Below are positions 798 to 63,815 of a stretch of 64,000 nucleotides of DNA, piece after piece (the first letter of the stretch is position 1; every line of letters begins with the position of its first letter). Below the pieces are notes generated by a model that made no database searches, was not told where the DNA came from, and saw only the letters and a program-made list of their open reading frames with translations. The translations under genes were made by a program, and so were the position numbers. Source of the DNA: an uncultured bacterium (GTDB lineage: Bacteria; Armatimonadota; Abditibacteriia; Abditibacteriales; Abditibacteriaceae); NCBI GenBank assembly GCA_963843795.1, contig CAWJLW010000006.1:1302001-1366000 (forward strand), given 5' to 3'.

Positions 798-845
798 ACA
801 ATCAAACCGGTTCTGCAAGTACTTGCAGAACCGGTTTGATTGTTT
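796..845. repeat. 50-bp perfect palindrome centred on GCAAGTACTTGC (terminator-like)
   Basis: AAACAATCAAACCGGTTCTGCAAGT|ACTTGCAGAACCGGTTTGATTGTTT, starting within the stop codon of the upstream gene and running into a T tract. Confidence 0.95.
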
Positions 846-863
846 TTGCCTTCCGCTAACAAT

Positions 864-1937
864 ATGAAGTGGATCATTCTCGAAGAAGCGCCGGTTGAAA
901 ATTTCTGGCCGCTTTCGCGCACGCGCCCGACGTGGGAATTGCGCTTTGGGGCGTGGTCGCCCTTGGAACGCGCGCGCATGGAAACGTGTCATCTCGCGTT
1001 GCGCGTGCGTCCCGAACTGGCTGCATACGCGCGTATTTCGACCGGCTTGCCGGTTAACGAAGATATTGAAGCGCAAAATATTAGTGGTGAAACACGTCAT
1101 GGTTTGCCGTATTTGTGGCCGTGGCAAATTCTCGCCAATTCAGACAAATTAATCGAAGCCGATTACGAGCAATGGATGGCCTCGCATTTCAACTGTCGCG
1201 AAGACATTGTGCTGGATGGCGTACATTTAATTGGCGATCGTGAGCAAATTTACATCGGTGCTGGTGCAACTGTACAAGCGGGCTGCGTGTTGGACGCCAG
1301 TCACGGGCCGATTATTGTTGGCGAACGCGCCGAAATTCAATGGTCGCACATTCAAGGGCCGGTTTTCATCGGTGCTGATTGCAACATTCACGGCGCGCGC
1401 GTGCGGCCGGGCACGAGCATCGGTCACGCTTGTAAAATCGGCGGCGAAATTTCCGCTTCGATTTTTCAAAGCCGCGTCAATAAAGCGCACGATGGTTTCG
1501 TCGGCCACAGTTGGGCCGGTCGCTGGGTGAATTTTGGCGCGCTGGCTACCACGAGCAACCTGAAGAATAATTATGGAAAGGTGCGCGTTTCGCAAACTTT
1601 GGAAACTTCTATCGATACCGAACAGCAATTTTTAGGGAGCTTGATTGGCGACCATACGAAAATCGGTATCGGGCAGATGCTGACGACCGGTAGCCACATC
1701 GGGCCGGGCTGCAATCTTTTTGGTGGTGGTGTCGCACCTAAATATGTGCCCGCGTTTTGTTGGGGTGGTGTCGAAGGTTGGGCCGAGCATCGTTTGGACG
1801 ATTGTTTGAAAACTGCGCGCGCTGTAACCGGACGGCGTTCGTTCGAGTTGCGCGTGCAAAGCGAAGCCGTGCTGCGCAATGTGTTCGCGCAAACGTCAAA
1901 AGAGCGCGCCGTGTTTTTGCAAATGCTGCGCGCCTGA
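864..1937 (+). CDS. GlmU-like putative sugar nucleotidyl/acyltransferase (hexapeptide repeat)
   Basis: N-terminal 'FWPLSRTRPTWELRFG', left-handed beta-helix repeats and 'NKAHDGFVGHSWAGRWVNFGA..SNLKNNYG'. ATG at 864 preferred over TTG at 840. Confidence 0.75.
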   Translation: MKWIILEEAPVENFWPLSRTRPTWELRFGAWSPLERARMETCHLALRVRPELAAYARISTGLPVNEDIEAQNISGETRHGLPYLWPWQILANSDKLIEADYEQWMASHFNCREDIVLDGVHLIGDREQIYIGAGATVQAGCVLDASHGPIIVGERAEIQWSHIQGPVFIGADCNIHGARVRPGTSIGHACKIGGEISASIFQSRVNKAHDGFVGHSWAGRWVNFGALATTSNLKNNYGKVRVSQTLETSIDTEQQFLGSLIGDHTKIGIGQMLTTGSHIGPGCNLFGGGVAPKYVPAFCWGGVEGWAEHRLDDCLKTARAVTGRRSFELRVQSEAVLRNVFAQTSKERAVFLQMLRA

Positions 1938-1960
1938 TTTGGATGGGAAATTAAAAACCA

Positions 1961-2401
1961 ATGCCGTTATTTGAATTTCGATGTTTAGATTGTGACAAGC
2001 GGTTTACATTTTTAAGTGGCGTTATCGCTGACAACAGCGAAGCGAAATGTCCGCGCTGCGATTCCGAAAAGTTGAAAAAGCTTATCTCGCGCGTTTCGCG
2101 CGGGCGCGATGACGATGCGCGTTTGGATGCGATGGCCGACAAGCTGGAAAACAGCGATTTCGATGATGAACGCGAAGTCAGAAAATTCGCGCGCGAAATG
2201 GGGCGCGAAATGGGCAGTGAAACTGGCGAAGATATGAGCGACGAAATCGAAGCCATGATCGAAGCCGAAGCACGAGGCGAAGACCTCGACGCGATGGGTG
2301 CGGGCGGAATGGGCGGCGCTGGCATGGGCGGAATGGGAATGGGCGGCATGGGCGCAGGCGGTTTCGGTGGCGGTTCGGGAGACGATGGAACGATTTATTA
2401 A
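1961..2401 (+). CDS. FmdB-family zinc-ribbon protein with Gly/Met-rich tail
   Basis: 'MPLFEFRCLDCDKRF...CPRCDSEKLKKLIS' signature; C-terminal GGMG repeats. Confidence 0.85.
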   Translation: MPLFEFRCLDCDKRFTFLSGVIADNSEAKCPRCDSEKLKKLISRVSRGRDDDARLDAMADKLENSDFDDEREVRKFAREMGREMGSETGEDMSDEIEAMIEAEARGEDLDAMGAGGMGGAGMGGMGMGGMGAGGFGGGSGDDGTIY

Positions 2402-3986
2402 GCCAGCGGCTCATCTCCGTGCCTTGTGCAAGTACTTGCACAAGGCTTTTCTGCTGTTATGCTTGGTAGCAAGTACTTGCCATGCCCAAAACGGTTTGGC
2501 GCTGCAAAATTTGCCAACTTTATCTAATAAAAATCCTTATCGCTGGTTCGCTTCGACCGATGCTAACCACAAAAACAATGATTTCGTGATGCTTCAACCT
2601 GGCGAAACGCGACGCGTGCCGCTAAGTGAAGGCAAGCTAGAGCGTTTGTGGAGCACGTCCGATCAGCCCGAAACGCTGCGTTTGCGACTGCAAAATGCTG
2701 GGCAAACGACAACGCTGTTAGAGAAAAATCGCGCTGTGCAGGGCAAGTGGAGCGACAAGGCTTACACACTTTACGATGCGCGCAATCTCAACCCCGACGC
2801 GACTTTAATTGCGAGCAATGCCAGCGCTAAACCCGCCAAATGGTTTTACCAGGCCAGTGTGCGGCCCAAGTTATTGCTCAGATTAGAGCCAGCAAAATTC
2901 ATTGGCGCGCCGAAAATTGTCAGCGTCGAGCGTTTGCTCAAAGATGGCGACAGCTTGGGCGCGTTCGATTTGTCGGGCGGCTTTAAATTCGGGCAAGTTG
3001 AAAAATTAGAAATTACACTCAAACCGGCGACATTGCAAACGTGGAACTTGGTTTTTCTGCGTGCTTTTGCGACTGGCGAGCAAGCGCGCGGGCCAGGTTC
3101 GCTAACCGAAATGCAGAACGCGCCAACTACGCCCGATCCGAAATTCGCTATCAACGCGCCGCTTTTGGCGCTCAGCGGACAATTTTTCGCGCTCAACTCG
3201 AAAAGCGATGCAGTTTCCAATTTCGATGGCAAAACGCTCACTATCAAATGGCCTTTGCCGTTCGACAAAGACCGCGAAGCGCCAGTGATTGATTTGTTCA
3301 ACACCAGCGCGGGTCGCGTGAATGTGAATATCAAAGCCACAGTGCGCCAATTGGATCAGTCACCCGCGATGATTTTTCATGCGGAATACGGCTCGGCCTT
3401 GCCAATAGCTAAACAACCGGTTTCGATTGCGAATTTCACCGGCAAAGGCGCATTAGTCGGGCTAGCGATGGCGACCAAACCAACGATTACTTCCAGTCGA
3501 CGCGCGTTTGCTTATCTCGAAGGAAACGAATTGATTCAGGCCGATGGCAAAATGTACGAAGGCACTGGCACCGAAGATTTCTTCAATTCAGCGTGGTATT
3601 TTCCCGAAAAACCGTTCACTGGCGATTACGGTGGCTTAACTTTCAAGAATGCGCTGCCGCCACAGGTTTCGATGTACCGCTGGCTCGTGCCCGATGCGAT
3701 TCCGTTTAGCCAAAATTTGCAATTCGATTTCGAACATGGCAACGGCAACAACGCGACCGACGTGGAATTTCGCTGGCTGGTGTGCTGGTATCAAGCACCG
3801 GGCGGCAGTTGGAAAGTTGTTGATGCGCTGCATGACGAGCCTGACGATGTTGAGCAAGGCCGCGCCGACGACGCGCGCCGCGAAATTGTATTTCGCCGCT
3901 ATATTCTGATTTCAACGGCAATCCTGCTCGGCATCGCAGCTTTAGTCGGGTTGTGGAGTGTGTTGAAAGGGCGGCGCGCGCAGTAA
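2385..3986 (+). CDS. DUF2961 (GH172-like) secreted, membrane-anchored protein
   Basis: 'EGNE...GTGTEDFFNSAWYF' and 'YRWLVPDAIPF...FEHG' motifs. ATG at 2385 follows GGAG; signal peptide and C-terminal TM helix present. Start is uncertain. Confidence 0.7.
   Translation: MERFIKPAAHLRALCKYLHKAFLLLCLVASTCHAQNGLALQNLPTLSNKNPYRWFASTDANHKNNDFVMLQPGETRRVPLSEGKLERLWSTSDQPETLRLRLQNAGQTTTLLEKNRAVQGKWSDKAYTLYDARNLNPDATLIASNASAKPAKWFYQASVRPKLLLRLEPAKFIGAPKIVSVERLLKDGDSLGAFDLSGGFKFGQVEKLEITLKPATLQTWNLVFLRAFATGEQARGPGSLTEMQNAPTTPDPKFAINAPLLALSGQFFALNSKSDAVSNFDGKTLTIKWPLPFDKDREAPVIDLFNTSAGRVNVNIKATVRQLDQSPAMIFHAEYGSALPIAKQPVSIANFTGKGALVGLAMATKPTITSSRRAFAYLEGNELIQADGKMYEGTGTEDFFNSAWYFPEKPFTGDYGGLTFKNALPPQVSMYRWLVPDAIPFSQNLQFDFEHGNGNNATDVEFRWLVCWYQAPGGSWKVVDALHDEPDDVEQGRADDARREIVFRRYILISTAILLGIAALVGLWSVLKGRRAQ
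2421..2446. repeat. 26-bp perfect palindrome with GCAAGTACTTGC core (second core at 2469-2480)
   Basis: GCCTTGTGCAAGTACTTGCACAAGGC followed by TTTT. Confidence 0.9.
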
Positions 3987-4026
3987 AACTTAACGATCCA
4001 GAAGTATTCGTATGAAGGAAATACAT

Positions 4027-6735
4027 ATGACCAGACAGGCAACTTTCAATCGGCAGTGGATTTTGATCAGCGCAATTTTGCTACTGCAAATCGTGCTCGT
4101 TTCCCTGTGCCGCGCGCAGAATCCTCTCAAGAAAACGTTGGATAACGGGCTGACGGTTTTGGTGCAGGAGAATCACGCTGCACCGGTAGTTTCGGTGCGT
4201 TTCTATGTGAAAACCGGTTCGATTTACGAAGGCAAATTTTTGGGCAGCGGCATTTCGCACTTGTTCGAACACACGCTATTCGAGGGCACGACAACGCGCA
4301 GCAAAATCCAAATCGACGACGATGTGCAGGCGATTGGAGGGCAGAGCAACGCTTATACTTCCAAGGATGTGACCTGTTATTACATCACGACGGCTTCGCC
4401 ATATTTCGAGCGCGCTTTGTCGTCCTTGAGTGATATGATGCAGAACGCGAATTTTCCCGATAATGAAGTCAAAACTCAGATTGGCGTCATTCACAACGAG
4501 ATGAATCTGGGCGACGATGATCCGGGCACCACGCTTTATAAAATATTCGATGAAACTGCTTTCGTGCGCCATTCGACGCGTTATCCGATTATCGGCTATC
4601 GCGAGAATTTCGACCGCTTGACGCGCGACGATATTATTTCTTATTACAAAGACCATTATCAGCCGGGCAACGTCGTTCTCGCAGTCGCGGGCGATGTCAA
4701 TACTGATATGGTTTTTAACTTGGCAACAAAATATCTGGGCGCGTGGCAGCGTCGCAACGCCAGCGACTTTACTCTGGCTTCGGAACCTTTGCAAACCGCA
4801 CCGCGCCGCTCGGTCGTGGAAAAAGATGTGCAACTGGCGTATTTAATGATCGGTTGGCACACAGTTCCTCTCCAAAACTCCGATTTGTATGCGCTCGATG
4901 TGCTGTCGCAAGTTCTGGGCGGCGGCGAAAGTTCACGTCTGGTGCGCTCGTTGCGCGAGCGCGATAGTCTGGTTTCCGACATCAGTTCCTATTCAGCGAC
5001 GCCCAATTACGATGCGGGCACGTTTGGGATTTCAGCAACTATGCCCGCCGAAAACTTGACCAAAGTCGAGAGTGCCATTTTTCAGCAAGTCGAAAACGTG
5101 ATTCGTCAGGGCGTGACGGCTGAAGAACTGGAGCGCGCTAAACGAGGCATTGAAACCGCGTTTATTTTCGGCAGCAGCGATGTGGAAAATCAGGCCGAGC
5201 AGATCGCCTACGACGAACTGGCGACCGGCGATCCGAGCTATTCGCGTCGGTATGTCGCGCGCATCAAAGACGTTACGGCTGCGCAGATTCAGGAAGTTGC
5301 TCGCAAGTACTTGCGGCCTGAAGGCACGACAACCGCGATCATTCGCCCACGTCTCGCAGCTGCCACGACCGTAGCCGTTGCACCAGTTCCGGCAGCGGGC
5401 GCACCGCAAATGTTCCGCTTGGCCAACGGAATGCGCGTGATTGTGCGCAACGATCCTTCCGCCGAGACTGTAGCTTTGGTCGCGATGGGCGTGGGCGGAA
5501 CGCGTTTAGAGCCGGCGGGCAAAGCCGGTGTGGCGAATTTGGCAACACAACTTTTGACGCGTGGCACGCCGGGACGCGATGCCGAAAGCGTGGCGACTTT
5601 AGTCGATACCTTGGGCGGAGATTTGACACCGCAAAGTGGCTACAATTCGTGGGGCATCAGTTCGCGCTGGCTGGTGCGCGACTGGCGGCGCGGTCTGGGT
5701 TTGCTCAGCGAAGCCGTCACCGAGCCAGCTTTTGCTGCCGATGAACTGGCGCGCGTGAAAGCGCAAACTATCGCGCAAATTCGCGCCCAAGATGACGATC
5801 CCAACGGCGCGGCAGCTTTAGCTTTGCGCGGGGCATTTTTCGGCGCGCACCCTTACGGACGTTCCAGTCTGGGCACCGAAGCCTCGCTGAACACAATTTC
5901 GCGCGATGATGTGGCGAATTATTGGAAGCGCATCGCCGATCCTTCTCGCACGGTGGTCGCAGTTTATGGAAACATCGAGCCGGAATTAGCGCGCGATGCC
6001 GTAGAGTTCGCGTTTAAAGATTGGAAAGCGAGCGGCACTTTGCCCGGCGCGCCCGCCGTGCCCGCAGCTTTGAACAGTTTCAAAGTCGTGGAAAGCACGA
6101 AACCCGGATTGGCGCAAACCGCGCTGTGGTTCGGCTATCCGTCGATTCGCATTGATGACCGCGACCGCTACGCGCTGGAAGTACTTGACGGCGCGCTTTC
6201 GGGCATTAATCTGCCCGGTGGACGTTTGCATCGTCGTCTGCGCGATAACGAACTGGTTTATGTAGTGCACGCTTACAATTCGCCCGGCGTCGATGCGGGA
6301 ATGTTTATTGTTTATGCGAACACCACGCGCGAAAATCGTGATAAAGTGCAATCGATTATTTTGGAAGAAATCAATCGAGTTCGCGACGAAGAAATTTCGC
6401 CCATGGAACTGGAAAGCGCCAAAAGCATGGCGATTGCCGCGCACGCCATCGATACGCAAAGCAATATCGCGCAGGCCAACAGTGCCGCCACCAATGAACT
6501 GGTCGGCATCGGTTACGGCGAAGACATCACGTTCGCCAACCGCATCAACGCCATCACCTTGGCCGATGTGAAAAACGTCGCGCAAAAATATCTGCGTCCC
6601 GATGCCGCTGCCCTGGCTGTCGTCGGCCCTCCCGTCGGACAAGACGCCGCTGTCGCACCAACCGATATCAAGCCAGAAGCGCCCAAAGCTGGACAAGACA
6701 CGCCGCCAGTGGCCGATAACATCCCTGCAAAGTAA
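4027..6735 (+). CDS. M16 family (pitrilysin/insulinase) zinc peptidase, secreted
   Basis: Inverted zinc motif HLFEH, 'GGQSNAYTSKD', two tandem M16 halves and a signal peptide. AAGGA RBS precedes the ATG at 4027. Confidence 0.92.
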   Translation: MTRQATFNRQWILISAILLLQIVLVSLCRAQNPLKKTLDNGLTVLVQENHAAPVVSVRFYVKTGSIYEGKFLGSGISHLFEHTLFEGTTTRSKIQIDDDVQAIGGQSNAYTSKDVTCYYITTASPYFERALSSLSDMMQNANFPDNEVKTQIGVIHNEMNLGDDDPGTTLYKIFDETAFVRHSTRYPIIGYRENFDRLTRDDIISYYKDHYQPGNVVLAVAGDVNTDMVFNLATKYLGAWQRRNASDFTLASEPLQTAPRRSVVEKDVQLAYLMIGWHTVPLQNSDLYALDVLSQVLGGGESSRLVRSLRERDSLVSDISSYSATPNYDAGTFGISATMPAENLTKVESAIFQQVENVIRQGVTAEELERAKRGIETAFIFGSSDVENQAEQIAYDELATGDPSYSRRYVARIKDVTAAQIQEVARKYLRPEGTTTAIIRPRLAAATTVAVAPVPAAGAPQMFRLANGMRVIVRNDPSAETVALVAMGVGGTRLEPAGKAGVANLATQLLTRGTPGRDAESVATLVDTLGGDLTPQSGYNSWGISSRWLVRDWRRGLGLLSEAVTEPAFAADELARVKAQTIAQIRAQDDDPNGAAALALRGAFFGAHPYGRSSLGTEASLNTISRDDVANYWKRIADPSRTVVAVYGNIEPELARDAVEFAFKDWKASGTLPGAPAVPAALNSFKVVESTKPGLAQTALWFGYPSIRIDDRDRYALEVLDGALSGINLPGGRLHRRLRDNELVYVVHAYNSPGVDAGMFIVYANTTRENRDKVQSIILEEINRVRDEEISPMELESAKSMAIAAHAIDTQSNIAQANSAATNELVGIGYGEDITFANRINAITLADVKNVAQKYLRPDAAALAVVGPPVGQDAAVAPTDIKPEAPKAGQDTPPVADNIPAK

Positions 6736-6759
6736 AAAACTTTCTATAAGCTCATTCAT

Positions 6760-6808
6760 AAAGAAAAAAGGCGTCCTACAAGTACTTGCAGGGCGCCTTT
6801 TTTTCTTT
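6760..6808. terminator. Bidirectional intrinsic terminator built on the palindrome (near-perfect)
   Basis: AAAGAAAAAAGGCGTCCTACAAGTACTTGCAGGGCGCCTTTTTTTCTTT between the convergent M16 and xerD genes. Confidence 0.85.
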
Positions 6809-6812
6809 GCAA

Positions 6813-8329: not shown

Positions 8330-9106
8330 ATGAAAATTCTGAAAACTGGTCTTGTTTCCATTACTTTTCGCCAACTTTCGCCATCCGAAATCATTGATTT
8401 AACTCAGCGCGCCGAACTCGATGGAATCGAATGGGGCGGCGATGTTCATGTGCCGCACGGCGATTTGCAAAGCGCGCGGCAAGTACTTGCACAGACCAAA
8501 GCCGCGAATTTACAAGTCGCGTGTTATGGTTCGTATTATCGCGCTGGTGTTTCGGAACGCGAAGGTTTGAGTTGGTCGCAAGTACTTGCCACAGCGAAAA
8601 CGCTTGAAGCGCCCTTGATTCGTGTGTGGGCCGGAAATCGCGGCACCGATGAAAGCGATGCCGCGCAAATTCAAAACGTGATTGATGATTTAGGGCGCAT
8701 TTGCGAAATCGCAGCGCGCGAAAATATTGCCGTCGCGCTGGAATTTCATGGCGGCACCTTGACCGATAGCGGCGAAAACGCGCTGCAAGTACTTTCAGGT
8801 GTTCAGCAGCCAAATTTGAAATCTTTGTGGCAGCCGCGCGTCGCGCAAGCCGTTGAAACGCGCTTGCACGATTTGGAATTGGTCGCGCCATATTTATCGA
8901 ATTTACACGTTTTTCAATGGGACGCGCAGCGCGCGCGTTTGCCATTGAAACAGGGCGAAAATGAATGGGGCAAGTACTTGCAGATGGCTTGCAAGTACCT
9001 GCAAGACGATGATGACGAACATTTTGCGCTTTTGGAATTTGTGCACGATGATAGCGTCGAGCAATTATTGCAGGATGCACAAACGTTGCGAAAGTTAGTT
9101 GGCTAA
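8330..9106 (+). CDS. Sugar phosphate isomerase/epimerase (AP_endonuc_2 TIM barrel)
   Basis: 'GLVSITFRQL...GIEWGGDVHVP...GSYYR...IRVWAG...EFHGGTLTD'. Confidence 0.85.
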   Translation: MKILKTGLVSITFRQLSPSEIIDLTQRAELDGIEWGGDVHVPHGDLQSARQVLAQTKAANLQVACYGSYYRAGVSEREGLSWSQVLATAKTLEAPLIRVWAGNRGTDESDAAQIQNVIDDLGRICEIAARENIAVALEFHGGTLTDSGENALQVLSGVQQPNLKSLWQPRVAQAVETRLHDLELVAPYLSNLHVFQWDAQRARLPLKQGENEWGKYLQMACKYLQDDDDEHFALLEFVHDDSVEQLLQDAQTLRKLVG

Positions 9107-9587: not shown

Positions 9588-10280
9588 TTGCAAGTACTTG
9601 CTGTGTGCCTCCTGTTGTTCATCAGCGGCTGCAAACCTTCGCCTTCAATTCCGCTTTACGATGTGCCCGCGTTAATGGGAAAAACCATTGACGAAGCCAC
9701 GCAAAAATTGGGGCCACCCAAGCGCGAAGAAAACGGGCCGGATGGACTGCCGCGCCGCGTGTGGATCAAAAATGATGTCACGCTGTGGGCAAACTGGAAA
9801 GCGCAAAGCGGGCGCATCACGCGCTGGGGCCTAGAAGCGCGTGGCGATTCCAACGCGCTCAGCGAAGAAAATCGCGGCGATTTGCTGACAATTATTCAGG
9901 CGACGGAAACCGACCCACGTTACAGCGTGCAATGGACGGAATCGGCGCAGCGTCCGCTACATTACACCGGCGCGATGATTGTGCCCGCGCCGCAAAATCA
10001 CACGGTGAAATTCGTCGTCAAAGGCTCGGAATCAATGCTCGCCGTCCGAATACAGCCTGCGCCGCCGGAAATTCCCAACGGTTTTTTGCTGACCATTCCG
10101 CCGTGGGAAACTACCTTTGAAGCGTCCGATGATGCCAAACTTTCGCTTTCGGCCAGCTTGCGCGAACGCACCGCGCGCACCGGTACTTACAAAATGACCG
10201 TCGAAATCGAAGTCGATGGAAAAGTGGTGCAAAGCCAAACTTCATCCAACCTGACGACCAGCGCCGAATTCGAAATTTAA
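9588..10280 (+). CDS. Hypothetical lipoprotein
   Basis: Lipobox-like 'LLLFISGC'. The only plausible start not overlapping the GNAT gene is TTG at 9588, which runs into a palindrome copy. Confidence 0.6.
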   Translation: MQVLAVCLLLFISGCKPSPSIPLYDVPALMGKTIDEATQKLGPPKREENGPDGLPRRVWIKNDVTLWANWKAQSGRITRWGLEARGDSNALSEENRGDLLTIIQATETDPRYSVQWTESAQRPLHYTGAMIVPAPQNHTVKFVVKGSESMLAVRIQPAPPEIPNGFLLTIPPWETTFEASDDAKLSLSASLRERTARTGTYKMTVEIEVDGKVVQSQTSSNLTTSAEFEI

Positions 10281-10286: not shown

Positions 10287-12215
10287 ATGAACCAAACTCC
10301 CACGGAACTTTTAAAGCAACATTTCGGATTCAGCACTTTCCGCGACGGTCAGCAGCAAGTCATCGACGCCATTTTGAATGATGGGCGCGCCTTAGCAATT
10401 TTTCCAACCGGCGGCGGCAAATCTCTTTGTTATCAACTGCCCGCTTTAGCGCTCGAAGGCGTGACTTTAGTGGTTTCGCCTTTGATCGCTTTGATGAAAG
10501 ATCAGATTGATTTTCTGCAAAGTCGCGGCATTGCCGCCGCACGTTTGGATTCAAGTTTAGATTTCGCGCAAACGCGCGCGGTAAACGACGATTTGCGCAG
10601 CGGTCAGTTGAAACTGCTTTATGTCGCGCCCGAACGTTTCAATAACGAACGTTTTTTGAACATTCTCAAAAGCGCGCCGATTGCGCTCATGGCGGTCGAT
10701 GAAGCGCACTGCATTTCCGAATGGGGCCACAATTTTCGGCCCGATTATCTCAAACTCGCCCGCATCGCGCGCGACCTGGAGATTCCGCGTTTGCTGGCTC
10801 TGACCGCGACCGCAACGCCGCCCGTCGCGCAAAGCATTTGCGAAGGTTTCGAAATTCCGCAAGCGCACGCAATCAATACTGGTTTCTATCGCCCGAACCT
10901 GCAAATGTGCTTGACGCCATTACAATCGCGACAGCGCGAAAGTTTGCTCTTGAAACGTTTGCAAAGCCGCGCACCCGGTTCGACGATTGTTTATGTCACT
11001 TTGCAACGCACAGCCGAAGACATCGCCAGTTTTTTGGAGAGACACGGCCTGAGTGCGCGCGCTTATCACGCGGGCATGAATTCCGAAGTGCGCAACGAAG
11101 TGCAGGAATGGTGGATGGCGGGCGACAATCGCATCGTGGTGGCGACAATCGCGTTTGGTATGGGCATCGACAAGTCGGATGTACGCTATGTTTATCATTT
11201 CAATTTGCCCAAAGGTTTGGAAAGTTACGCGCAGGAAATTGGGCGTGCCGGACGCGACGGTGCGCCTTCGACCGTCGAACTTTTGGCGTGCCGCGATGAT
11301 GTTCCTGCGCTGGAAAACTTCGTTTTTGGCGATACGCCGCCGCGCCAATCTTTGGAAGCTCTGGTACAAACGGTTTTAAATTCAGAGGATGAATTTAATT
11401 TCAAGGAAACCGATTGGTCGGGCCAGTTCGATTTGCGACCTTTGGTCTTGAAAACTGCCTTGACTTACCTCGAACTGGATGGCATTGTGCGTCAGGGCAC
11501 GCCGTTTTATGCGGGCTATGAAATGCAGCCCAAAGCGCCATCGGAAGAAATTTACGCCGCATTTGGCGAAAAAGCGGGCGATTTCCTGCGCCGATTATTC
11601 GAAACTGCCAAAGTTGGGCGCATCTGGTGGAAAATTGAACCCGAAAGCGCGATGCAAGTACTTGCCTGCAAACGCGAACATATCGTGCGCGCGATGGGCT
11701 TATTGGAGGAGCGCGATTTGGCAATTGTGCGCGCGGCGGACGTGCGCCAGCGTTATCATTTGCTGAAGCACGACGCGAACGCTGAACAATTGGTCGATGG
11801 CTTGATGGAACGTTTCGCGCGCCGCGAAAACGTTGAAATTCGCCGCATTAACGACGTTCTCGAACTGGTCGTAAACAATGGTTGCCAGACCAACGCTCTC
11901 GTCGGTTACTTTGGCGAAATGCGACAGGAACCGTGCGGCCATTGTTCGTTTTGCCTCACCCAAAAAGCCGCAATTTTGCCGCCCGCGCCGCCACAAGTCG
12001 ATTTAAATTCAATGATTAATAGAAACGAGTTAGAAAAATTACGTTCAGAGCATTTTGATGCGCTGGGCACGCCGCGCCAAACGGCGCGCTTTTTGTGTGG
12101 CCTGAGCAGTCCGGCTTTGTCGCGCGAAAAGCTGCACAAGCACGAATGGTTTGGCACTTTGGAGACGCAGCGCTTCGGCGTGGTTTTGGAATGGTTAGGA
12201 AAAAATCGAGCGTGA
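10287..12215 (+). CDS. recQ: RecQ-family ATP-dependent DNA helicase
   Basis: 'PTGGGKSLCYQ', DEAH box 'VDEAHCISEWGHNFRPDY', 'QEIGRAGRDG' and Zn-binding 'CGHCSFC'. Confidence 0.92.
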   Translation: MNQTPTELLKQHFGFSTFRDGQQQVIDAILNDGRALAIFPTGGGKSLCYQLPALALEGVTLVVSPLIALMKDQIDFLQSRGIAAARLDSSLDFAQTRAVNDDLRSGQLKLLYVAPERFNNERFLNILKSAPIALMAVDEAHCISEWGHNFRPDYLKLARIARDLEIPRLLALTATATPPVAQSICEGFEIPQAHAINTGFYRPNLQMCLTPLQSRQRESLLLKRLQSRAPGSTIVYVTLQRTAEDIASFLERHGLSARAYHAGMNSEVRNEVQEWWMAGDNRIVVATIAFGMGIDKSDVRYVYHFNLPKGLESYAQEIGRAGRDGAPSTVELLACRDDVPALENFVFGDTPPRQSLEALVQTVLNSEDEFNFKETDWSGQFDLRPLVLKTALTYLELDGIVRQGTPFYAGYEMQPKAPSEEIYAAFGEKAGDFLRRLFETAKVGRIWWKIEPESAMQVLACKREHIVRAMGLLEERDLAIVRAADVRQRYHLLKHDANAEQLVDGLMERFARRENVEIRRINDVLELVVNNGCQTNALVGYFGEMRQEPCGHCSFCLTQKAAILPPAPPQVDLNSMINRNELEKLRSEHFDALGTPRQTARFLCGLSSPALSREKLHKHEWFGTLETQRFGVVLEWLGKNRA

Positions 12216-14507: not shown

Positions 14508-14527
14508 TTCTGCAAGTACTTGCAGAA
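14508..14527. repeat. 20-bp palindrome copy
   Basis: TTCTGCAAGTACTTGCAGAA. Confidence 0.9.
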
Positions 14528-17796: not shown

Positions 17797-17824
17797 TGTG
17801 GCAAGTACTTGCCACACTGTTTTT
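17797..17824 (+). terminator. Palindrome-based terminator
   Basis: TGTGGCAAGTACTTGCCACA followed by CTGTTTTT. Confidence 0.7.
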
Positions 17825-20709: not shown

Positions 20710-20761
20710 GCAAGCACAAAAAGCGCGCTGCAAGTACTTGCAGCGCGCTTTTTGTGCTTGC
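20710..20761. terminator. 52-bp perfect palindrome / terminator
   Basis: GCAAGCACAAAAAGCGCGCTGCAAGT|ACTTGCAGCGCGCTTTTTGTGCTTGC, 8 nt after the ABC gene stop. Confidence 0.95.
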
Positions 20762-25703: not shown

Positions 25704-25717
25704 TGCAAGTACTTGCA
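25704..25717. repeat. Palindrome copy in the rpoB leader
   Basis: TGCAAGTACTTGCA. Confidence 0.9.
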
Positions 25718-30067: not shown

Positions 30068-30164
30068 CTTGAAAGCAGACTTGAAAGCGAAAAGCTTGAA
30101 AGCGAAAGCTAAATCGCGGTGCAAGTACTTGCAGAGCACAGCACAGCCCTGCAAGTACTTGCAG
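30068..30164. repeat. rpoB-rpoC spacer: 3x CTTGAAAGC plus two palindrome copies
   Basis: CTTGAAAGC at 30068, 30080 and 30095; TGCAAGTACTTGCA at 30120 and 30150. Confidence 0.9.
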
Positions 30165-34984: not shown

Positions 34985-35022
34985 CAAAAACGCCGGGGCA
35001 AGTACTTGCCCCGGCGTTTTTG
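34985..35022. terminator. 38-bp perfect palindrome, bidirectional terminator of rpoC
   Basis: CAAAAACGCCGGGGCAAGT|ACTTGCCCCGGCGTTTTTG. Confidence 0.95.
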
Positions 35023-35985: not shown

Positions 35986-36013
35986 AAGGCGCTGCAAGTA
36001 CTTGCAGCGCCTT
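35986..36013 (-). terminator. 28-bp palindrome; terminator of the oxidoreductase pair
   Basis: AAGGCGCTGCAAGTACTTGCAGCGCCTT with an A tract on the left (U tract on the minus strand). Confidence 0.85.
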
Positions 36014-37754: not shown

Positions 37755-37772
37755 CCTGCAAGTACTTGCAGG
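37755..37772. repeat. 18-bp palindrome copy between divergent genes
   Basis: CCTGCAAGTACTTGCAGG. Confidence 0.9.
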
Positions 37773-40671: not shown

Positions 40672-40707
40672 AGACAAGCATTGGCAAGTACTTGCCAATG
40701 CTTGTCT
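40672..40707. repeat. 36-bp perfect palindrome after DUF1559 gene
   Basis: AGACAAGCATTGGCAAGT|ACTTGCCAATGCTTGTCT; a variant GCAAGAACTTGC lies at 40735. Confidence 0.93.
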
Positions 40708-44760: not shown

Positions 44761-44853
44761 AGACGCGCTGCAAGTACTTGCGAACCTTAAAATAGTTGTC
44801 TTTTGCACTAGACGATAAGTGCGAACTATTTATCAAACCACGGAGGAAAAATC

Positions 44854-48694: not shown

Positions 48695-50155
48695 ATGGCA
48701 AGCCATCAATTTCTGTGGACGAATGCGATGATTGCGGGCGCAGCCGCGCTGCAAGTACTTGCAGGCGCACCCGCTCAAGGAGCCGAGATGAACAAGACGC
48801 CCAACGTCGTGCTGATTTATACCGACGATCAAGGTTATGCCGATTTGGGAAGCTTCGGCGCGCAGGGATTCCAAACGCCCAACATCGACCAAATGGCGCG
48901 CGAAGGTCGGCGCTTCAGCGATTTTCACGTCGCGCAACCGATTTGCTCAGCGTCGCGTGCCTCGCTGCTCACCGGCTGTTATCCCAATCGCATCGGCATC
49001 AACGGCGCGCTGAGTCCGCATAGCAAAATCGGCATTAGCCAAAATGAAACCACGCTGGCGCAATTGTTCAAAAAACAAGGCTACGCGACCGGCATGATTG
49101 GCAAATGGCATCTGGGCGATGCGCCACAATTTCTGCCCACCAATCGCGGTTTCGATTCTTATTTTGGAATTCCGTATTCGCACGATATGTGGCCGCTTCA
49201 TCCGCAAACGCCCAAAGCTTATCCGCCGCTGCCATTGATGGAAAACACAAGCGTCGTCAATCCCGATTTGCAGCCCGCCGATTTGGAACAACTCACCACC
49301 AACTACACCAAGCACGCGGTTGATTTTATCGACCAGAATCGTGACAAGGCGTTTTTCTTGTATCTCGCTCACAACCTGCCGCACGTGCCGCTTTTCGTGA
49401 GTGAAAAATTCAAGGGCAAATCGGAAAAGGGGCTTTACGGTGATGTTATCGAAGAAATCGACTGGTCGGTCGGCGAAGTCAATAAAGCCTTGAAACGCAA
49501 CCATTTGGACGAGAATACGATTGTGATTTTCGCGTCCGATAACGGCCCGTGGCTCAGCTACGGCGAACACGCCGGTTCGGCGTATCCGTTGCGCGAAGGC
49601 AAGGGCACGTCGTGGGAAGGCGGCACGCGCGTTCCGTGCGTGATGCGCTGGCCCGGACACATTCCCGCGAATACGGTGTGCGACGATATGCTGATGACCA
49701 TTGACATCTTGCCCACTTTGGCCAAAATTATCGGTGCGCCTTTGCCCGAAACCGCAATCGATGGACTCGATGTATGGCCGCTTTTGTCGGGCGCAGCAGG
49801 TGCTCAGAATCCGCACGACGCTTATTATTTCTACTACGAAAATAATCAGTTGCAAGCCGTGACAAGTGGCGATGGCCGCTGGAAAATGGTGTTGCCGCAC
49901 ACTTATCGCACACTCAATGGCCGTGAAGGCCGCGACGACGGATTGCCCATCAATTACGAACAAGTCCAACTCAAAAAGCCCGAACTTTACGATTTGCGCG
50001 CAGACCAAGGCGAAGCGCGCAATGTCGCTGAGGAAAATCCGAATATCGTCGCGCAGTTGCAAATCGCAGCCGAAAAAGCGCGCACCGAACTTGGCGATGC
50101 GCTGACCAATCGTATAGGAAGCGGGGTGCGAGGGGTAGGAAGGACCAGCGAGTAA
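48695..50155 (+). CDS. Arylsulfatase A-like sulfatase (CSASR)
   Basis: 'YTDDQGY', 'CSASRASLLTG', 'GKWHLG', 'PYSHDM' and 'SDNGPW'. Confidence 0.92.
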   Translation: MASHQFLWTNAMIAGAAALQVLAGAPAQGAEMNKTPNVVLIYTDDQGYADLGSFGAQGFQTPNIDQMAREGRRFSDFHVAQPICSASRASLLTGCYPNRIGINGALSPHSKIGISQNETTLAQLFKKQGYATGMIGKWHLGDAPQFLPTNRGFDSYFGIPYSHDMWPLHPQTPKAYPPLPLMENTSVVNPDLQPADLEQLTTNYTKHAVDFIDQNRDKAFFLYLAHNLPHVPLFVSEKFKGKSEKGLYGDVIEEIDWSVGEVNKALKRNHLDENTIVIFASDNGPWLSYGEHAGSAYPLREGKGTSWEGGTRVPCVMRWPGHIPANTVCDDMLMTIDILPTLAKIIGAPLPETAIDGLDVWPLLSGAAGAQNPHDAYYFYYENNQLQAVTSGDGRWKMVLPHTYRTLNGREGRDDGLPINYEQVQLKKPELYDLRADQGEARNVAEENPNIVAQLQIAAEKARTELGDALTNRIGSGVRGVGRTSE

Positions 50156-50893: not shown

Positions 50894-52408
50894 GCCAAGA
50901 AAACCGTGATCGAGTCGGGCGGCGTGATTTGCTGCGCGGCGGTGCGCTGGTCGGTGCGGGCGCGCTGTTATCGGGCTGTTCTCGGGTGATTCGTCGTTAT
51001 ACCGCTCCCGAAACTCCCGCTTCAGTTGCGCTGCCAACCGGTAACGTCGAGCCGATTGCGCGTTTGCTGCATCGCACCGGCTTTGGCCCGACGCCGGGCG
51101 AAATTGCGCGCGTGAAAGATTTGGGCGTCGAAAAATACGTCGAAGAACAATTGCATCCCAACGACCAAGAAAGCACGCTGCTGAGTTTGCGTTTGCGCGG
51201 TATTGAAGCGTTGCGCGGCGATGCGATGGATTTGCAGAATTTCAAAGAGCGCGAAGTGCTGCAACAATTACAGCAAGCGACGATTCTGCGCGCGGTTTAC
51301 AGTCGCCACCAACTGCGCGAGCGCATGGTCGATTTTTGGAGCAACCATTTCAATATCTACGCGCACGAAGGCCATCGCACTTTTTACAAGCCGATGGATG
51401 AATTTGGCGTGGTGCGCAAACACGCGCTGGGCAAATTTCCCGCACTGCTGAATGCGTCGGCGCACAGTCCGGCGATGCTGTTTTATCTCAACAACGACGC
51501 TAATAAAAGCGGCGTGCCGAACGAAAACTACGCGCGCGAACTGATGGAATTGCACACTATGGGCGTGCATGGCGGCTACACACAAAAAGACGTTTTGGAA
51601 GTCGCGCGCTGCTTCACCGGCTGGACGGTCGAAAGCCGTTTTTTGCGTAAGCGCGGCACGTTTTTCTTCGATGCCAGCCGTCATGATAACGGCGCCAAAA
51701 CTGTGCTCGGAACGCGCATTCTGCCCGGCGGCGGCGAAAAAGACGCGCAGCAAGTACTTGCGCTCTTGTCCAAACATCCCGCGACCGCGCGCTTTATCAG
51801 CAGCAAAATCAGTCGTTATTTTCTGGGCGATGATGAGGGCAAATACACCGCAAAACTTGACGAAGATTTACCAAGAAACCGATGGCGATATCGTCGAAAT
51901 GCTGCGCCCGCTGTTGTTGTCGGATGAATTGCGCGATTCTCCGCCAATCTTGAAGCGGCCATTTGATTACATGGTTTCCTCGTTGCGCGCGCTCAATGCT
52001 GATACCGATGGCGGCGCGGGCGTGCAAGAACATCTGCGGCGCATGGGGCAGCCGTTGTACCAGTGGCCGATGCCCGATGGTTATCCCGACCGCACTGCGG
52101 CGTGGACGGGTTCGCTCTTAGCGCGCTGGAATTTCGCCCTCGATTTGGCTTCGGGCGGCGTAAATGGAACCAGCATCGACTTGCCCAAACTGCTGAATTC
52201 GACGCCCAAAGCGCAACAAACCCAAGCGTTGCGCGAAATCGTTTTCGCGCAACGCGACAATAATGATGCGCCACATTTTCAGCGCGCCTTAGGTGAGATG
52301 AAAAGTGCACGCAAGTACTTGCAGCCCGCTGTGAAGGTCGACGACGATGTGTCTTTGAAAGAAAACGCGGCGTTGTTATTGGCATCGCCGGAATTTCAAT
52401 GGCGCTAA
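50890..52408 (+). pseudogene. DUF1800 family protein split by a +1 frameshift near 51857
   Basis: 'QLRERMVDFWSNHF' and 'NENYARELMELHTMG' are in one frame; 'TDGDI..LKRP..GQPLYQWPMPDGY..SPEFQWR' are in the next. It may be a sequencing error. Confidence 0.75.
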
Positions 52409-53873: not shown

Positions 53874-53889
53874 CTGCAAGTACTTGCAG
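53874..53889. repeat. Palindrome copy between convergent genes
   Basis: CTGCAAGTACTTGCAG. Confidence 0.9.
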
Positions 53890-53893: not shown

Positions 53894-55882
53894 TTAATTG
53901 GCGCGCGTGATTTCCAATGCGCTGATTTTAGCGTTTTGGTCGGGGCTGTTGGGCGCGGCGCTGATGCGAATTGTCAAGTTGCCGTTCGCATCGGGCGCGA
54001 TGTTATTGAAATTTTTGACCAGCGCTTTGTTTTGTCCGGCTTCGCGGGCGATGTCGAGATTGTTCAATACGCGTTGGCCGTTGATGTCGATGTTTTCCAA
54101 GCGTTGGCCGATTTTGTCTTCGAAAATTTCCGCGAAGTGCAAGCGAACGTTGTAGCGATTCGTTTTGGGCACAGCGAAAACGAAGCTGAAATCGTGGCCG
54201 TAGCGTTCACTTTGGTAAATCGCTTCGGGCGCGGCGTTGGGTGCGCTCACATCGACGCGATTCCGGTTAGAATTGGTCGCGCCGTATTCGATATTCGGGT
54301 CGGGCACGAAGCCCGCGACGGCGATTTCGGAGCCCGCGACGACGCGAATGGGCAACGGCAAAACGACCAATTTGCGGATTGGCGTCGGAAACGGTCGCGC
54401 AAGTACTTGCGGGGCGCGATTCAAGGTTTGTAGCACGAACTCGCCGAACAACGTGTTGGCCCACGCGAACCACGAGCGCGTGTAACGGTTCGGGTTGTTT
54501 TTGTTGAACGATTCGTGCATGAAACCGGTATTGGCGTGCGTGGCTTTGAGCGTTTTCAGGCTTGAAGTCACTTCGGAAACGGAAGTGCTGGTCAGGCCAT
54601 ACATAATCAGGCTCATCGGCCAAATCATATCTTTGCCGACGTGCGGGCCGCCGACGCCAGAATATTTTCCCTCGAAAAACCACGGATTATCTTTGCTCCA
54701 CACGAAGCGCCGCGTGTTCTGATAAGTGCGATCCTTGACTGAAAGCGCGCCCAGATACGGCAGCGAAAGCAAGTCGGGCACATTCGAATCGTCCATCAAG
54801 GAAACGTGGCCCAAACCGTCGATTTCATACGCGTATATCGTTCCGCGCGTCGGATGTTTTTGCTTGGCGTACTGCTTCAACGCGCGCTCGACTTCGTTTG
54901 CTAAGGCCGTCGCTTGCGCGGCCTTTTGCGGATTGTGGCGCACTTTGTTGAGCAAAATCGCCATTTGGCGCAGCGAAGTGACGGCGAAGAAGTTGGAGGG
55001 AATTAGGAATTGATAAGTTGTTTCGTCATCCGAAGGGCGGAAGCGCGAGCAAATTAATCCGATGGGCTTCACCGGCGAACCGTAAAGTTCGGGCGCGCCT
55101 TCTGCGGGGCGCGGGCCGCCGCGTTTGAAAGCGTAAGGGCCATTGCCGTTTTTGCGCTGCTGCTCGCGAAAGGTGCGCAGAATGGCGTCCATCCCGGCTT
55201 CCCATTCGGCATCGAAGGGCGAACTGTCGCCGCTTTGCTGCCAGTAGCCATACGCCAAACGCAGCGGATAACACAGCGAATCGACTTCCCATTTGCGCTC
55301 GTGAACGCCCGCTTTCATTTCGGTGTAATCGCGGCTCCATTCGCTGTGGCCATTTTCATCAGCCAGAAACGCGTTCGCGTAAGGGTCGAGCAGAATGCAT
55401 TTCACCTGACGCCGAATCACGCCCTGAATCATGCGCGCCAATTTCGGGTCGCGCTTCACGAGTGGCAAATAGGGCCACACCTGCGCCGAAGAATCGCGCA
55501 GCCACATCGCGTCGATGTCGCCAGTAATTACGAACGTATCCGGCTGAGCACCATCGGTAAATGTGACGGTCGTATCGAGCGTGTTCGGATAACAATTTTC
55601 GAAAAGCCACGCGACTTCTTTATCACCAATGCGGCGTTTGGCGTTACGAATAGTTTCCTCAACGGCGGACGAAGTGAAGCGCCGATCTGCCAACGCCGGA
55701 CGTTTGAAAACGAAGGTTTCGAGATTTGAATTTGTGACCGTCGCGCTTTGGGCCAGCACTTTTTCGAGCGAGCCAGTCGTCAGACCAGCGAGCGAAAACG
55801 CCGCCGCGCTTTGCAAAAGCGTGCGCCGCGAAAGAGAAAAGTCGGAATCGGATGCGGAATGGTCGGGCTTGTGTTGAGTCAT
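53894..55882 (-). CDS. GH125 exo-alpha-mannosidase with C-terminal malectin domain, Tat-exported
   Basis: 'SRRTLLQ', 'NTLDTT', 'ITGDIDAMWLRDS', 'ERKWEVDSL' and 'FAWANTLF'; malectin 'YQSERYG...VRLHFAEI'. Confidence 0.9.
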   Translation of the reverse strand: MTQHKPDHSASDSDFSLSRRTLLQSAAAFSLAGLTTGSLEKVLAQSATVTNSNLETFVFKRPALADRRFTSSAVEETIRNAKRRIGDKEVAWLFENCYPNTLDTTVTFTDGAQPDTFVITGDIDAMWLRDSSAQVWPYLPLVKRDPKLARMIQGVIRRQVKCILLDPYANAFLADENGHSEWSRDYTEMKAGVHERKWEVDSLCYPLRLAYGYWQQSGDSSPFDAEWEAGMDAILRTFREQQRKNGNGPYAFKRGGPRPAEGAPELYGSPVKPIGLICSRFRPSDDETTYQFLIPSNFFAVTSLRQMAILLNKVRHNPQKAAQATALANEVERALKQYAKQKHPTRGTIYAYEIDGLGHVSLMDDSNVPDLLSLPYLGALSVKDRTYQNTRRFVWSKDNPWFFEGKYSGVGGPHVGKDMIWPMSLIMYGLTSTSVSEVTSSLKTLKATHANTGFMHESFNKNNPNRYTRSWFAWANTLFGEFVLQTLNRAPQVLARPFPTPIRKLVVLPLPIRVVAGSEIAVAGFVPDPNIEYGATNSNRNRVDVSAPNAAPEAIYQSERYGHDFSFVFAVPKTNRYNVRLHFAEIFEDKIGQRLENIDINGQRVLNNLDIAREAGQNKALVKNFNNIAPDANGNLTIRISAAPNSPDQNAKISALEITRAN

Positions 55883-55896: not shown

Positions 55897-55964
55897 TGTT
55901 GCAAGTACTTGCAACATATATTCAGACAAAAAATGGCCGCTGCAAGTACTTGCAGCGGCCATTT
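55897..55964. repeat. Two palindrome copies (55897-55916; 34-bp perfect at 55931-55964)
   Basis: TGTTGCAAGTACTTGCAACA and AAATGGCCGCTGCAAGTACTTGCAGCGGCCATTT. Confidence 0.93.
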
Positions 55965-58788: not shown

Positions 58789-58831
58789 AAAGATGGCTCC
58801 ATTTGCGGCACGATTCGACTGGGGTTACGAC

Positions 58832-58867
58832 ACAATTTGCTCTGCAAGTACTTGCAGGGCAAATTGT
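58832..58867. repeat. 36-bp near-perfect palindrome upstream of GH92
   Basis: ACAATTTGCTCTGCAAGTACTTGCAGGGCAAATTGT. Confidence 0.9.
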
Positions 58868-59001
58868 TGAGGGATTTTGGGGAGCTGAGTCGATTTTAAA
58901 CGCTTTTTACAGCCTCATTCACCGGTGTTGCCCGAAATTTTCCACAAGGTTAAATCTGGAATTTTTAACTGGCAAGTATTTGCATTCCGCAATTACTAAT
59001 A

Positions 59002-59048
59002 ACCCGCAGAGTAAGTGCAAAGACTTGTCGTTGCACTTACTTGCGGGT
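59002..59048 (-). terminator. Stem-loop after the ABC importer operon
   Basis: ACCCGCAGAGTAAGTGCAA-loop-TTGCACTTACTTGCGGGT. Confidence 0.7.
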
Positions 59049-59056
59049 GTAGAAAA

Positions 59057-60082: not shown

Positions 60083-60118
60083 AAATTAATTCCTTTACTG
60101 GTTTTGAATAGGGTGAAT

Positions 60119-63084: not shown

Positions 63085-63587
63085 ACTGCGTTGCAAAGTG
63101 TGAAAGCGATTATTTTGCGGCTTCGAAAATCAAGTCATCCAAACCGCACAACGACTTCAGACCGCTCGATTTCTCGTTGACGCCAACGATTTTCACACGC
63201 AAAGTGCAATGGTTACCGTGCGGCACAAAAATCTCAGATCAATCGGTTCAGATTGCCGCCCAACTGACGCATGCCATCGAAATCCAAGGGAATTATATGA
63301 CCATTTATGGGAAAGCGAAGTTTAACGTAATCGGACTCTTGAGTTGCGTGCAAAACTAGTCAATACGTGTAGTTTGAATCGGGTATTACTAATTCTACGC
63401 CATACTGTTAAGTCCTGCGATAAATGGTAAATGTGCCAAGGCATGAATTGCATTTGAATCGGGTTTCGATGAAAGAATGAGTTGGATGCAAAATCCCTCT
63501 CCACGTGTTTGCCGAAACGTGCTTGCCTAAACAAATCAGAACTGAGAGGATAAAAGTAATTTTATATTAGGAATTGGAGGCACCACA

Positions 63588-63619
63588 AAAAGCTCCCGCC
63601 AGCAGCGGCGGGAGCTTTT
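63588..63619 (-). terminator. Conventional intrinsic terminator of the tRNA
   Basis: AAAAGCTCCCGCC-AGCAGC-GGCGGGAGCTTTT. Confidence 0.85.
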
Positions 63620-63658
63620 GAGTACCTTACTCGACTTTATGTCCTCAAGGTTGATGAG

Positions 63659-63732
63659 TAGCCCGTAGGGGATTCGAACCCCTGATCTTCAGAATGAGAA
63701 TCTGATGTCCTGGGCCTCTAGACGAACGGGCC
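63659..63732 (-). tRNA. tRNA-Glu (anticodon CTC), CCA not encoded
   Basis: GGCCCGT/ACGGGCT acceptor stem, anticodon arm TCAGA-TTCTCAT-TCTGA and T-arm AGGGGTTCGAATCCCCT. Confidence 0.95.
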
Positions 63733-63781
63733 ATCTGCGCTAAAAGCACCAGAAAATTTAACAAATTCCTCTGCAGTGCGC

Positions 63782-63815
63782 AAGTTCTATGTGCAAGTAC
63801 TTGCACATAGAACTT
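63782..63815. repeat. 34-bp perfect palindrome just after rho
   Basis: AAGTTCTATGTGCAAGT|ACTTGCACATAGAACTT. Confidence 0.95.

Follow-up and report, generated by a model that had tools for sequence, protein, structure and literature searches.

The window analysed here is a 64-kb stretch of DNA (G000:C6:1302001-1366000) from the source genome G000 of an uncultured soil-type bacterium, a 4.3-Mb assembly of 11 contigs which the source names of its homologues place in the Abditibacteriaceae (Armatimonadota). It is an unremarkable part of the chromosome, where xerD-like, recQ, rpoB, rpoC, sulfatase and sugar-transport genes lie, and Rfam matched only a tRNA there. A model that saw only the letters and their open reading frames (hereafter, the sequence-only reading) had listed by hand 34 starts of a 12-bp palindrome, GCAAGTACTTGC, both between and within genes, and had taken this word for a lineage-specific chromosomal signal. 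All 34 starts proved exact, against a mean of 0.00 matches in 100 dinucleotide shuffles of the window. Genes were called with our own hexamer caller (3,510 genes), whose starts are rough and which split several genes at frameshifts; by these calls, 25 copies lay between genes and nine were coding, the intergenic status of those at 9590 and 52311 resting on uncertain start calls. Ten of the 34 copies formed the apex of a long hairpin. The copies are given below by window position, with no strand assigned.

796..845, perfect 50-bp hairpin with the motif (815-826) at its apex, between co-directional genes
2428..2480, two intergenic copies (2428 and 2469) 41 bp apart, the first with 7 extra paired bases
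5303..5314, coding copy in the KYL frame, within the gene of an M16-like peptidase
8479..8981, three coding copies (8479, 8578 and 8970) in the gene at 8330-9106, which encodes 258 amino acids (aa)
9590..9601, copy close to the start of a gene, where the start call decides whether it is intergenic or coding
11654..11665, coding copy in the QVLA frame, in recQ
14512..14523, intergenic copy
16678..16689, coding copy in the QVLA frame
17801..17812, intergenic copy
20710..20761, terminator-like hairpin with a 24-bp stem, A/T tails and the motif (20730) at its apex, 28 bp past a stop codon
23534..23569, two-way terminator-like hairpin with the motif (23546) at its apex, between convergent genes
25705..25716, copy upstream of rpoB, in a divergent spacer
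30121..30162, two copies 30 bp apart in the rpoB-rpoC spacer
34985..35022, two-way terminator-like hairpin with the motif (34998) at its apex, after rpoC, between convergent genes
35994..36005, intergenic copy at a hairpin apex, with 8 extra pairs
37758..37769, copy in a divergent spacer
40672..40707, hairpin with the motif (40684) at its apex, 16 bp past a stop codon
42925..42936, intergenic copy with a degenerate copy 13 bp upstream
44770..44781, intergenic copy 9 bp past a stop codon
47632..47713, two intergenic copies 70 bp apart, the second at a hairpin apex
48751..48762, coding copy in the QVLA frame, near the start of a sulfatase gene
51750..51761, coding copy in the QVLA frame
52311..52322, copy where the gene call is uncertain
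53876..53887, copy without a long stem, between convergent genes
54399..54410, coding copy in the QVLA frame, in a gene on the minus strand
55901..55953, two intergenic copies 41 bp apart, the second at a hairpin apex with A/T tails
58844..58855, intergenic copy at the apex of an imperfect hairpin (9/10 flank pairs)
63782..63815, hairpin with the motif (63793) at its apex, beside a tRNA gene (63659-63732, minus strand)

The gene at 8330-9106 had the highest motif content for its length in the G000 genome. A sulfatase gene was split by frameshifts (window 45680-47615), as were several pilus genes (G000:C6:385000-402000), which suggests sequencing indels rather than pseudogenes.

Across G000, GCAAGTACTTGC was the commonest 12-mer, with 2,567 copies on all 11 contigs. 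The Markov expectation was 0.3 copies at order 2, 0.65 at order 3 and 7.4 at order 5 with the motif masked. The consensus was CTGCAAGTACTTGCAG, and 1,290 copies extended to TGCAAGTACTTGCA. Perfect copies outnumbered both the one-mismatch (506) and the two-mismatch (371) words. All 12 positions were constrained, and symmetric double changes, which keep the hairpin, occurred only 0-4 times each, indicating conservation of sequence rather than of fold. An artefact of assembly or adapters, which the sequence-only reading had named as a danger, is excluded by copies in frame, by copies at the same aligned positions with changed flanks in other assemblies, and by other flanks in independent genomes and metagenome contigs. 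One DNA sequencing run contained 0.31 of the words; among the pieces listed, none bridged the site by 31 letters on both sides. No RNA run was among those listed as containing the words.

Perfect copies were evenly spread at about 600 per Mb, with a spacing more even than random (Fano factor 0.52). Mapped against origin, terminus and islands, as the sequence-only reading had proposed, density was flat along both replichores (605 per Mb round the skew peak and 652 on the arms), and the two longest copy-free gaps, of about 26 kb each, were islands rich in insertion sequences, with transposases. The phage-like contig C4 carried 239 copies per Mb (40% of the chromosomal density) as against 629 on C6, and the first 32 kb of contig C3 had none. 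When we looked for a period of 10-90 kb like that of the cyanobacterial HIP1 (highly iterated palindrome 1), a marginal peak appeared at 34 kb (9.6; null 95% level, 8.8). Several other features of the genome were recorded. Contig C4 is phage- or plasmid-prophage-like, and C3 1-28000 resembles, by eye from its proteins, a contractile injection system island. Four parS-like sites lie near the GC-skew minimum (G000:C6:3511616-3515023). CGATCG was avoided (0.2), and many 6-bp palindromes were strongly avoided (observed/expected, 0.17-0.5).

We then classified 2,563 copies, leaving out four near contig ends. Coding copies numbered 749 (29%; 0.20 per kb); 1,226 lay in co-directional spacers (3.1 per kb), 296 in convergent spacers (4.1), 268 in divergent spacers (1.8) and 24 at edges. 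Within genes the word was read as QVLA (490 copies), KYL (144) or ASTC (115), using the rare codons GTA and CTT, and the encoded peptides were 3- to more than 10-fold over permuted controls (QVLA, 561 vs 27-47; ASTC, 133 vs 1-8; KYL, 313 vs 72-111). Codon alignments to relatives had a gap at 9 of 104 sites, and amino-acid identity at the sites fell below the alignment mean in all seven comparisons, clearly in five and marginally in two. These alignments indicate that the coding copies arose by point substitution at tolerant sites, rewriting the peptides.

Such an origin bears on the possibility that the word is a mobile repeat, similar to repetitive extragenic palindromes (REPs) or miniature inverted-repeat transposable elements, or a target of an Ssn-type single-strand nuclease. 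Either would account for the hairpin form, for the density of 3.1-4.1 per kb in co-directional and convergent spacers against 0.20 in genes, and for the 12-13 bp tandem duplications that exist. Like REPs with their associated tyrosine transposases (RAYTs) and like Ssn/NTS (compared with PMC11893778), the word is hairpin-forming, mostly intergenic and present in many copies; unlike them, it has no conserved stem beyond the core, no insertion signature and no linked transposase or short GIY-YIG gene. Its coding copies are substitutions, its stems differ from copy to copy beyond the core, the sole Y1 transposase of the genome is flanked by a different, GTAG-type REP, and both GIY-YIG (PF01541) matches in G000 lie in frames of 450-672 aa, not in short Ssn genes. 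We consider a mobile repeat or Ssn target very unlikely, and the RAYT connection suggested from the sequence fell away. The REP-RAYT locus itself (G000:C6:751600-752450) consists of a Y1 transposase gene with an early in-frame stop and GTAG-type REP inverted pairs on both sides, and is unrelated to the word studied here.

Each of 30 relatives had 0-3 exact copies of GCAAGTACTTGC. Of the 27 family genomes, seven were carriers, with their own dialects round an invariant GTAC: TGCAAGTACTTGCA, TCAAAGTACTTTGA, ATCGAGTACTCGAT and the non-palindromic RGTACGGTCGA. The signal is therefore lineage-specific, as the sequence-only reading had held, with one dialect per species. Six of the seven carriers have a palindromic word; G006 does not. 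Words derived from sampled loci were TCAAAGTACTTTGA in G001, ATCGAGTACTCGAW in G009, G015 and G038, the looser GAGTACTC in G012 and the asymmetric RGTACGGTCGAW in G006. AAGTACTT had 2,725 copies in G001, and none of the other 26 genomes of the order had more than 59. AGTACT had 2,813-4,733 copies in G009, G012, G015 and G038, and exceeded about 350 per Mb in none of 375 genomes outside the family. The G006 word had 2,981 copies (1,473 and 1,508 on the two strands), of which 1,726 (58%) formed 863 inverted pairs two bases apart; in sampled loci, these pairs mostly had A/T tails, with the word forming the stem, not the loop. In G001, 55 of 143 cores were perfect on both sides, where independent halves would give 56.

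A genome was scored as a non-carrier when three words counted genome-wide showed no excess and 14-170 kb samples scanned for enriched words yielded none; the latter scan left out G011, G018, G032, G034 and G035. In a quick RpoC tree, unrooted or midpoint-rooted, with G018 missing and G019 on a long branch, carriers fell in g1 (2/2) and in genus g6 (5/6), and the non-carriers G017, G003 and g2 fell among or between them. Coding sites were shared in place with the congener G001 in 6 of 19 cases, three of which were full G000 words opposite different flanks (non-motif GTAC control, 9/67), with high-GC metagenome relatives in 3 of 7 (control, 3/31), and with non-carriers in 0 of 46.

Dialect words also appeared in metagenome contigs and in one phage contig. 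Among the matches listed, contigs of 61-70% GC with clear homology to G000 carried CAAGTACTTG about once per kb. The contig scan gave at least 36 loci with the word; those listed were all chance singles except one 2.9-kb contig with three copies, whose proteins are 73-82% identical to those of G000 and which is probably mis-binned. A 58-kb phage contig, IMGVR_UViG_3300034031_000030 (L325-L329), carried six G006-type pairs as well as singles; it also encodes an integrase-like gene and a 1,486-aa protein with a Nudix match and a weak ADP-ribosyltransferase match. Otherwise, the G000 and g6 words mostly had single matches in viral scans, and where several copies occurred, the contigs were phages of 38-44% GC with little likeness to G000. 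In phage contigs of that composition (L456, L476 and L520; L200-L201), GTGCAAGTACTTGCAC recurred 3-5 times per 15 kb and is probably an unrelated operator. In G036, CACACGTGTG occurred four times in 20 kb (G036:C3:10001-30000, L128), 142 times the expectation; a local operator is one possibility, a dialect lacking GTAC another.

Many copies sit in hairpins. With at least 8 of 10 flanking bases paired as the threshold, 572 of 1,790 intergenic copies were at a hairpin apex, and 444 of these 572 had a T-tract on one or both strands. The share varied with setting (convergent, 211/296; divergent, 30/268; coding, 11/749). The core was present in 614 of 857 strong A/T-tailed intergenic stems, a fraction biased upward by the palindrome itself, which supplies part of the stem. 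Six hairpins that we folded had z scores of -4.6 to -12.2. The word might on these grounds be an RNA-level element, a standard terminator or a stability hairpin with a GUAC loop that was copied round the genome. However, 22% of copies cap terminator-like hairpins and 78% have no long stem, two coding copies folded no better than shuffles, compensatory double changes were nearly absent, in spacers the transcribed strand showed no preference for G-U-tolerated changes (26 vs 29), and the G006 word supplies the stem, not the loop. Because so many copies lack a long stem, terminator use is most likely secondary, and an RNA element is a most improbable explanation for the word as a whole.

On each strand, A was enriched 8-11 bases outside the word, in coding copies too (2.41 vs 1.74 per 8 nt), with a second, weaker peak about 10 bases further out. 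Pairs less than 100 bp apart clustered at 20-21, 29-30, 39-42, 51 and 60-63 bp, giving a period of about 10.4 bp (p = 0.0002; p = 0.0006 without 36-45 bp) that was significant in spacers; the few coding pairs fell short of significance (p = 0.13). These A-tracts and this phasing point to a protein that may bind on one face of bent double-stranded DNA. Such a protein could be a cytoplasmic organiser of the chromosome or a replication-linked factor, either a nucleoid protein or a reader of methylated GTAC akin to SeqA, bound about once per gene, with the dialects following its recognition surface. The perfect-both-sides count in G001, by which both halves matter, the persistence of A-tracts at -8 to -11 in coding copies, the helical phasing, the under-dispersed spacing and the marginal 34-kb peak would all fit, and action of this kind is proposed for HIP1 in PMC5861425. 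Against it, a homodimer would not easily read the asymmetric G006 dialect, no bias towards origin or terminus was found, and in the tests run 20 of 27 family genomes, including G017, a sister of carriers, lacked any such word, which would be strange if it met a structural need; wholesale rewriting of proteins is also explained less simply than by recombination drive. We regard a chromosome-organising protein as rather doubtful.

The sequence-only reading had also named the SlmA site, GTGAGTACTCAC, as an analogue. That site is present in tens of copies, and SlmA, Noc and MatP sites are excluded from or restricted to the terminus. The word shares an AGTACT centre with it, and the g6 dialect shares GAGTACTC, but the word runs to thousands of copies (about 2,600 in G000) with no loss near the terminus, and an SlmA-type site is not borne out.

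G000 has one beta-class DPPY methylase gene (C6:2517365-2518135), the nearest solved relative being M.RsrI. Of 28 genomes of the order, 22 had a close orthologue, which was broken in two of them; all seven carriers were among the 22, and none of 375 genomes outside the family had one. A phylum-wide search found the methylase in 21 of 401 genomes, all of this family. In carriers it is an orphan, and it is 65-74% identical among carriers with different flanks. In G034, G017 and G003, which represent three genera, the methylase gene lies beside a gene for a partner of 215-240 aa:

L084:800-1444, partner gene in G034, family P0138-P0257
L088:695-1408, partner gene in G017, family P0138-P0257

The partner had no match in Pfam, none of note by sequence in the PDB and none in plasmids. 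Its predicted structure (mean confidence score pLDDT, 92) gave modest matches to PD-(D/E)xK enzymes (NhoI, Z 7.1; MutH, 7.0; PvuII, 6.4; DpnI, 6.3) over 117-148 aligned residues at root mean square deviations of 3.5-4.4, suggesting a restriction-nuclease fold. Atlas hints of PvuII (18% of one cluster) and ScaI (below its bar) serve as leads only. Judged by eye, a signal peptide is present in 11 of 13 family copies; the G034 copy has none, and that of G008, which follows comEA, cannot be told. The partner occurred in 13 of 20 non-carriers and in none of the seven carriers, of which G001 is only 63% complete, and searches of G000 for a distant homologue, filters off included, found none. The wider family comprises 572 homologues, in Abditibacteriaceae and Verrucomicrobia and, more distantly, in cyanophages and giant viruses; the cyanophage and PHROG relatives carry no functional name.

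Presence of the partner went with loss of GTAC. Median observed/expected ratios were 0.04 with the partner and 0.59 without it (carriers masked), the largest shift among 16 palindromic 4-mers; CTAG shifted from 0.18 to 0.05 and the other 14 little. The ratios come from sampled loci, 4-184 kb per relative, samples below 15 kb being kept outside the medians. From these counts we infer that methylase and partner both recognise GTAC. A PabI-type GTAC glycosylase had no match in five genomes, where the control was likewise silent. Outside this family, G347 (another family) had 1,221 copies of AGTACT against 211 of a control word, and AGTACT was nearly absent (0-11 per genome in most) from G029, G052, G065 and G077 (family f11) and from most of family f34; these lack methylase and partner, so another system must avoid AGTACT there.

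An orphan GTAC methylase recalls Elhai's model for HIP, set out for HIP1 in PMC4390886, in which the methylase and biased repair turn near-matches into consensus and the word has no reader function. The methylase in all carriers, the substitution origin with its even spread, and the partner's predicted fold, which resembles MutH among others, would agree with a by-product of methyl-directed repair. Yet a methylase conserved among carriers with different flanks cannot alone set the dialect, carriers lack the MutH-like partner, which is for the most part exported, and neither A-tracts, phasing nor an asymmetric dialect is predicted. We think this account unlikely.

On balance we lean towards reading the word as a species-specific self-recognition tag for natural transformation, like the uptake sequences of Neisseria and Haemophilus, as its genomic imprint matches that of described uptake sequences and there are precedents for methylation-dependent self-recognition. 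The imprint is documented in four sources (10.1101/2025.10.24.684340, PMC2817400, PMC2397512 and PMC1939737): there, 34.5% of DNA uptake sequences (DUS) in N. meningitidis are coding (PMC2817400), here 749 of 2,563, and upwards of 90% of the DUES that form inverted repeats lie in terminators (10.1101/2025.10.24.684340). The precedents are CtsM of C. jejuni (PMC8468864) and HIP1 (10.1101/2024.09.10.611283; PMC13756078). Among the functions offered by the sequence-only reading, uptake or recombination tied to methylation fits best, and repair and nucleoid binding rank lower; the terminator-apex role, the relatives' dialects and the methylase/nuclease pattern had no place in it.

As a tag for transformation, the word would probably be methylated at its centre, given a methylase and a partner that recognise GTAC. 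Lineages that keep the exported nuclease would cut incoming GTAC-bearing DNA, and GTAC would be purged from their genomes; some lineages that lost the nuclease would have gained a reader favouring GTAC with species-specific flanks, at uptake or at later recombination. Biased uptake and recombination would then fix new copies where they are tolerated, mainly in spacers and terminator stems, by molecular drive. In palindromic dialects the reader may act two-fold symmetrically on bent DNA, giving the A-tracts 8-11 bases out and the 10.4-bp phasing.

The competence machinery needed for this is present. G000 has type IV pilus genes, ComEA, ComEC and DprA. Of the co-distributed genes that the sequence-only reading had proposed to look for, the methylase is in all seven carriers and competence genes are there; both also occur in non-carriers. 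As a side observation, G000 has about 40 pilin-like genes with near-identical starts, two of them in the window (39915-40667 and 44854-45621). None of 52 pilin-like proteins was markedly basic, the ComEA/ComEC neighbourhoods held no receptor candidate, and a small basic protein in the pilus operons was found in carriers and non-carriers alike. The ComP profile PF16732 had no match, the control genomes being silent too; ComN was not searched.

Several observations weigh against a transformation tag. ComEA, ComEC and DprA were also present in the non-carriers tested, the pilus operon and minor pilins were alike in carriers and non-carriers (15 genomes), and no receptor emerged from screens of pilins, pilus operons, ComEA/ComEC and exported proteins; in the last, 60 exported basic proteins compared with loci totalling 0.7 Mb from carriers and 1.0 Mb from non-carriers gave no candidate, a sampling too sparse to decide. 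Low-coding-score genes (0.29 copies per kb) were not poorer in motif than the top class (0.12), so that depletion in alien genes is true for islands only, and six maintenance genes found by motif showed no clear excess (5 vs 3.6 expected). Genus g6 shared 1 of 32 coding sites with G000, and of the six sites in common with G001, two or three were 8-base cores that protein conservation alone could keep. GTAC loss was moderate in G017 (0.34) and G003 (0.49), which have the partner, and strong in G007 (0.10) and G016 (0.09), where it was not found; seven genomes had neither partner nor tag. Since kin are not independent, the nuclease/GTAC pattern amounts to about two contrasts, not 27, and the GTAC specificity of both enzymes is drawn purely from word counts. 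A cytoplasmic DNA-binding dimer would account equally well for palindromy, A-tracts and helical phasing, and the DUS and uptake signal sequences (USS) known to us are non-palindromic, unlike the word in six of the seven carriers.

By sequence and host, the word lies outside DUS/USS and HIP1, yet it behaves like both. As in DUS/USS, copies number hundreds per Mb, perfect ones far exceed those with mismatches, about 30% are coding, with a frame bias and an effect on peptide sequence, the positions used are tolerant, terminators are among the sites, dialects differ between species and, in G006, copies have the inverted-pair layout. AT-rich flanks are a further likeness to USS. It differs in its unrelated sequence and phylum, in an invariant GTAC tied to a methylase/nuclease pair and in the lack of any ComP-type receptor found; moreover, the palindromic word of six of the seven carriers allows one copy to cap a hairpin. 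With HIP1 (GCGATCGC) and the alternative HIPs, the word has in common the palindrome, the substitution origin, a presence in all frames and in spacers, lineage variants and an orphan methylase whose likely site is inside the word, and methylated HIP1 raises transformation. Unlike HIP1, it is 12-14 bp long and A/T-centred, is some 15 times denser in spacers than in genes, predominates in terminators, differs between species and has a non-palindromic sister dialect, and its host is not a cyanobacterium. In C. jejuni, CtsM is likewise an orphan methylase that marks self DNA for uptake via pilus and ComEC, but its signal is a short methylase site, whereas the word studied here has 10-14 fixed bases, and its flanks vary beside a conserved methylase.

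No report of GCAAGTACTTGC, or of a palindrome in Abditibacterium, was found in the literature searched; that search lay outside most subscription papers and supplements, whose oligomer tables could list such words. For the dialect words, the matches listed were, by title, unrelated work. As far as this literature goes, the DUS-like dialect, the methylase/nuclease link, the helical phasing and a phage carrying its host's dialect are new. Sequence-specific DNA uptake has been described for two bacterial families, and HIP1 has, to our knowledge, been without a clear function for more than 30 years. It is possible, as a tentative extension, that the Abditibacteriaceae words form a third independent uptake-sequence family joining DUS and HIP1. 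One GTAC-marking methylase would underlie two opposite drives: with the nuclease kept, GTAC would be lost almost completely and serve as an anti-tag; with the nuclease lost, a new reader of methylated GTAC and its flanks would build up thousands of tags, switching between palindromic and non-palindromic forms and copied by resident phages.

On one core the family combines a palindrome like that of HIP with an inverted pair like that of DUS, beside sister lineages purging that core. It would offer natural gain and loss contrasts with which to test molecular drive, what methylation does in self-recognition and how highly iterated words arise, and it points to an undescribed family of exported proteins with a predicted restriction-nuclease fold and a predicted target. 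Abditibacterium utsteinense, a cultured species, has homologues of both methylase and partner, so that the two enzymes are testable.

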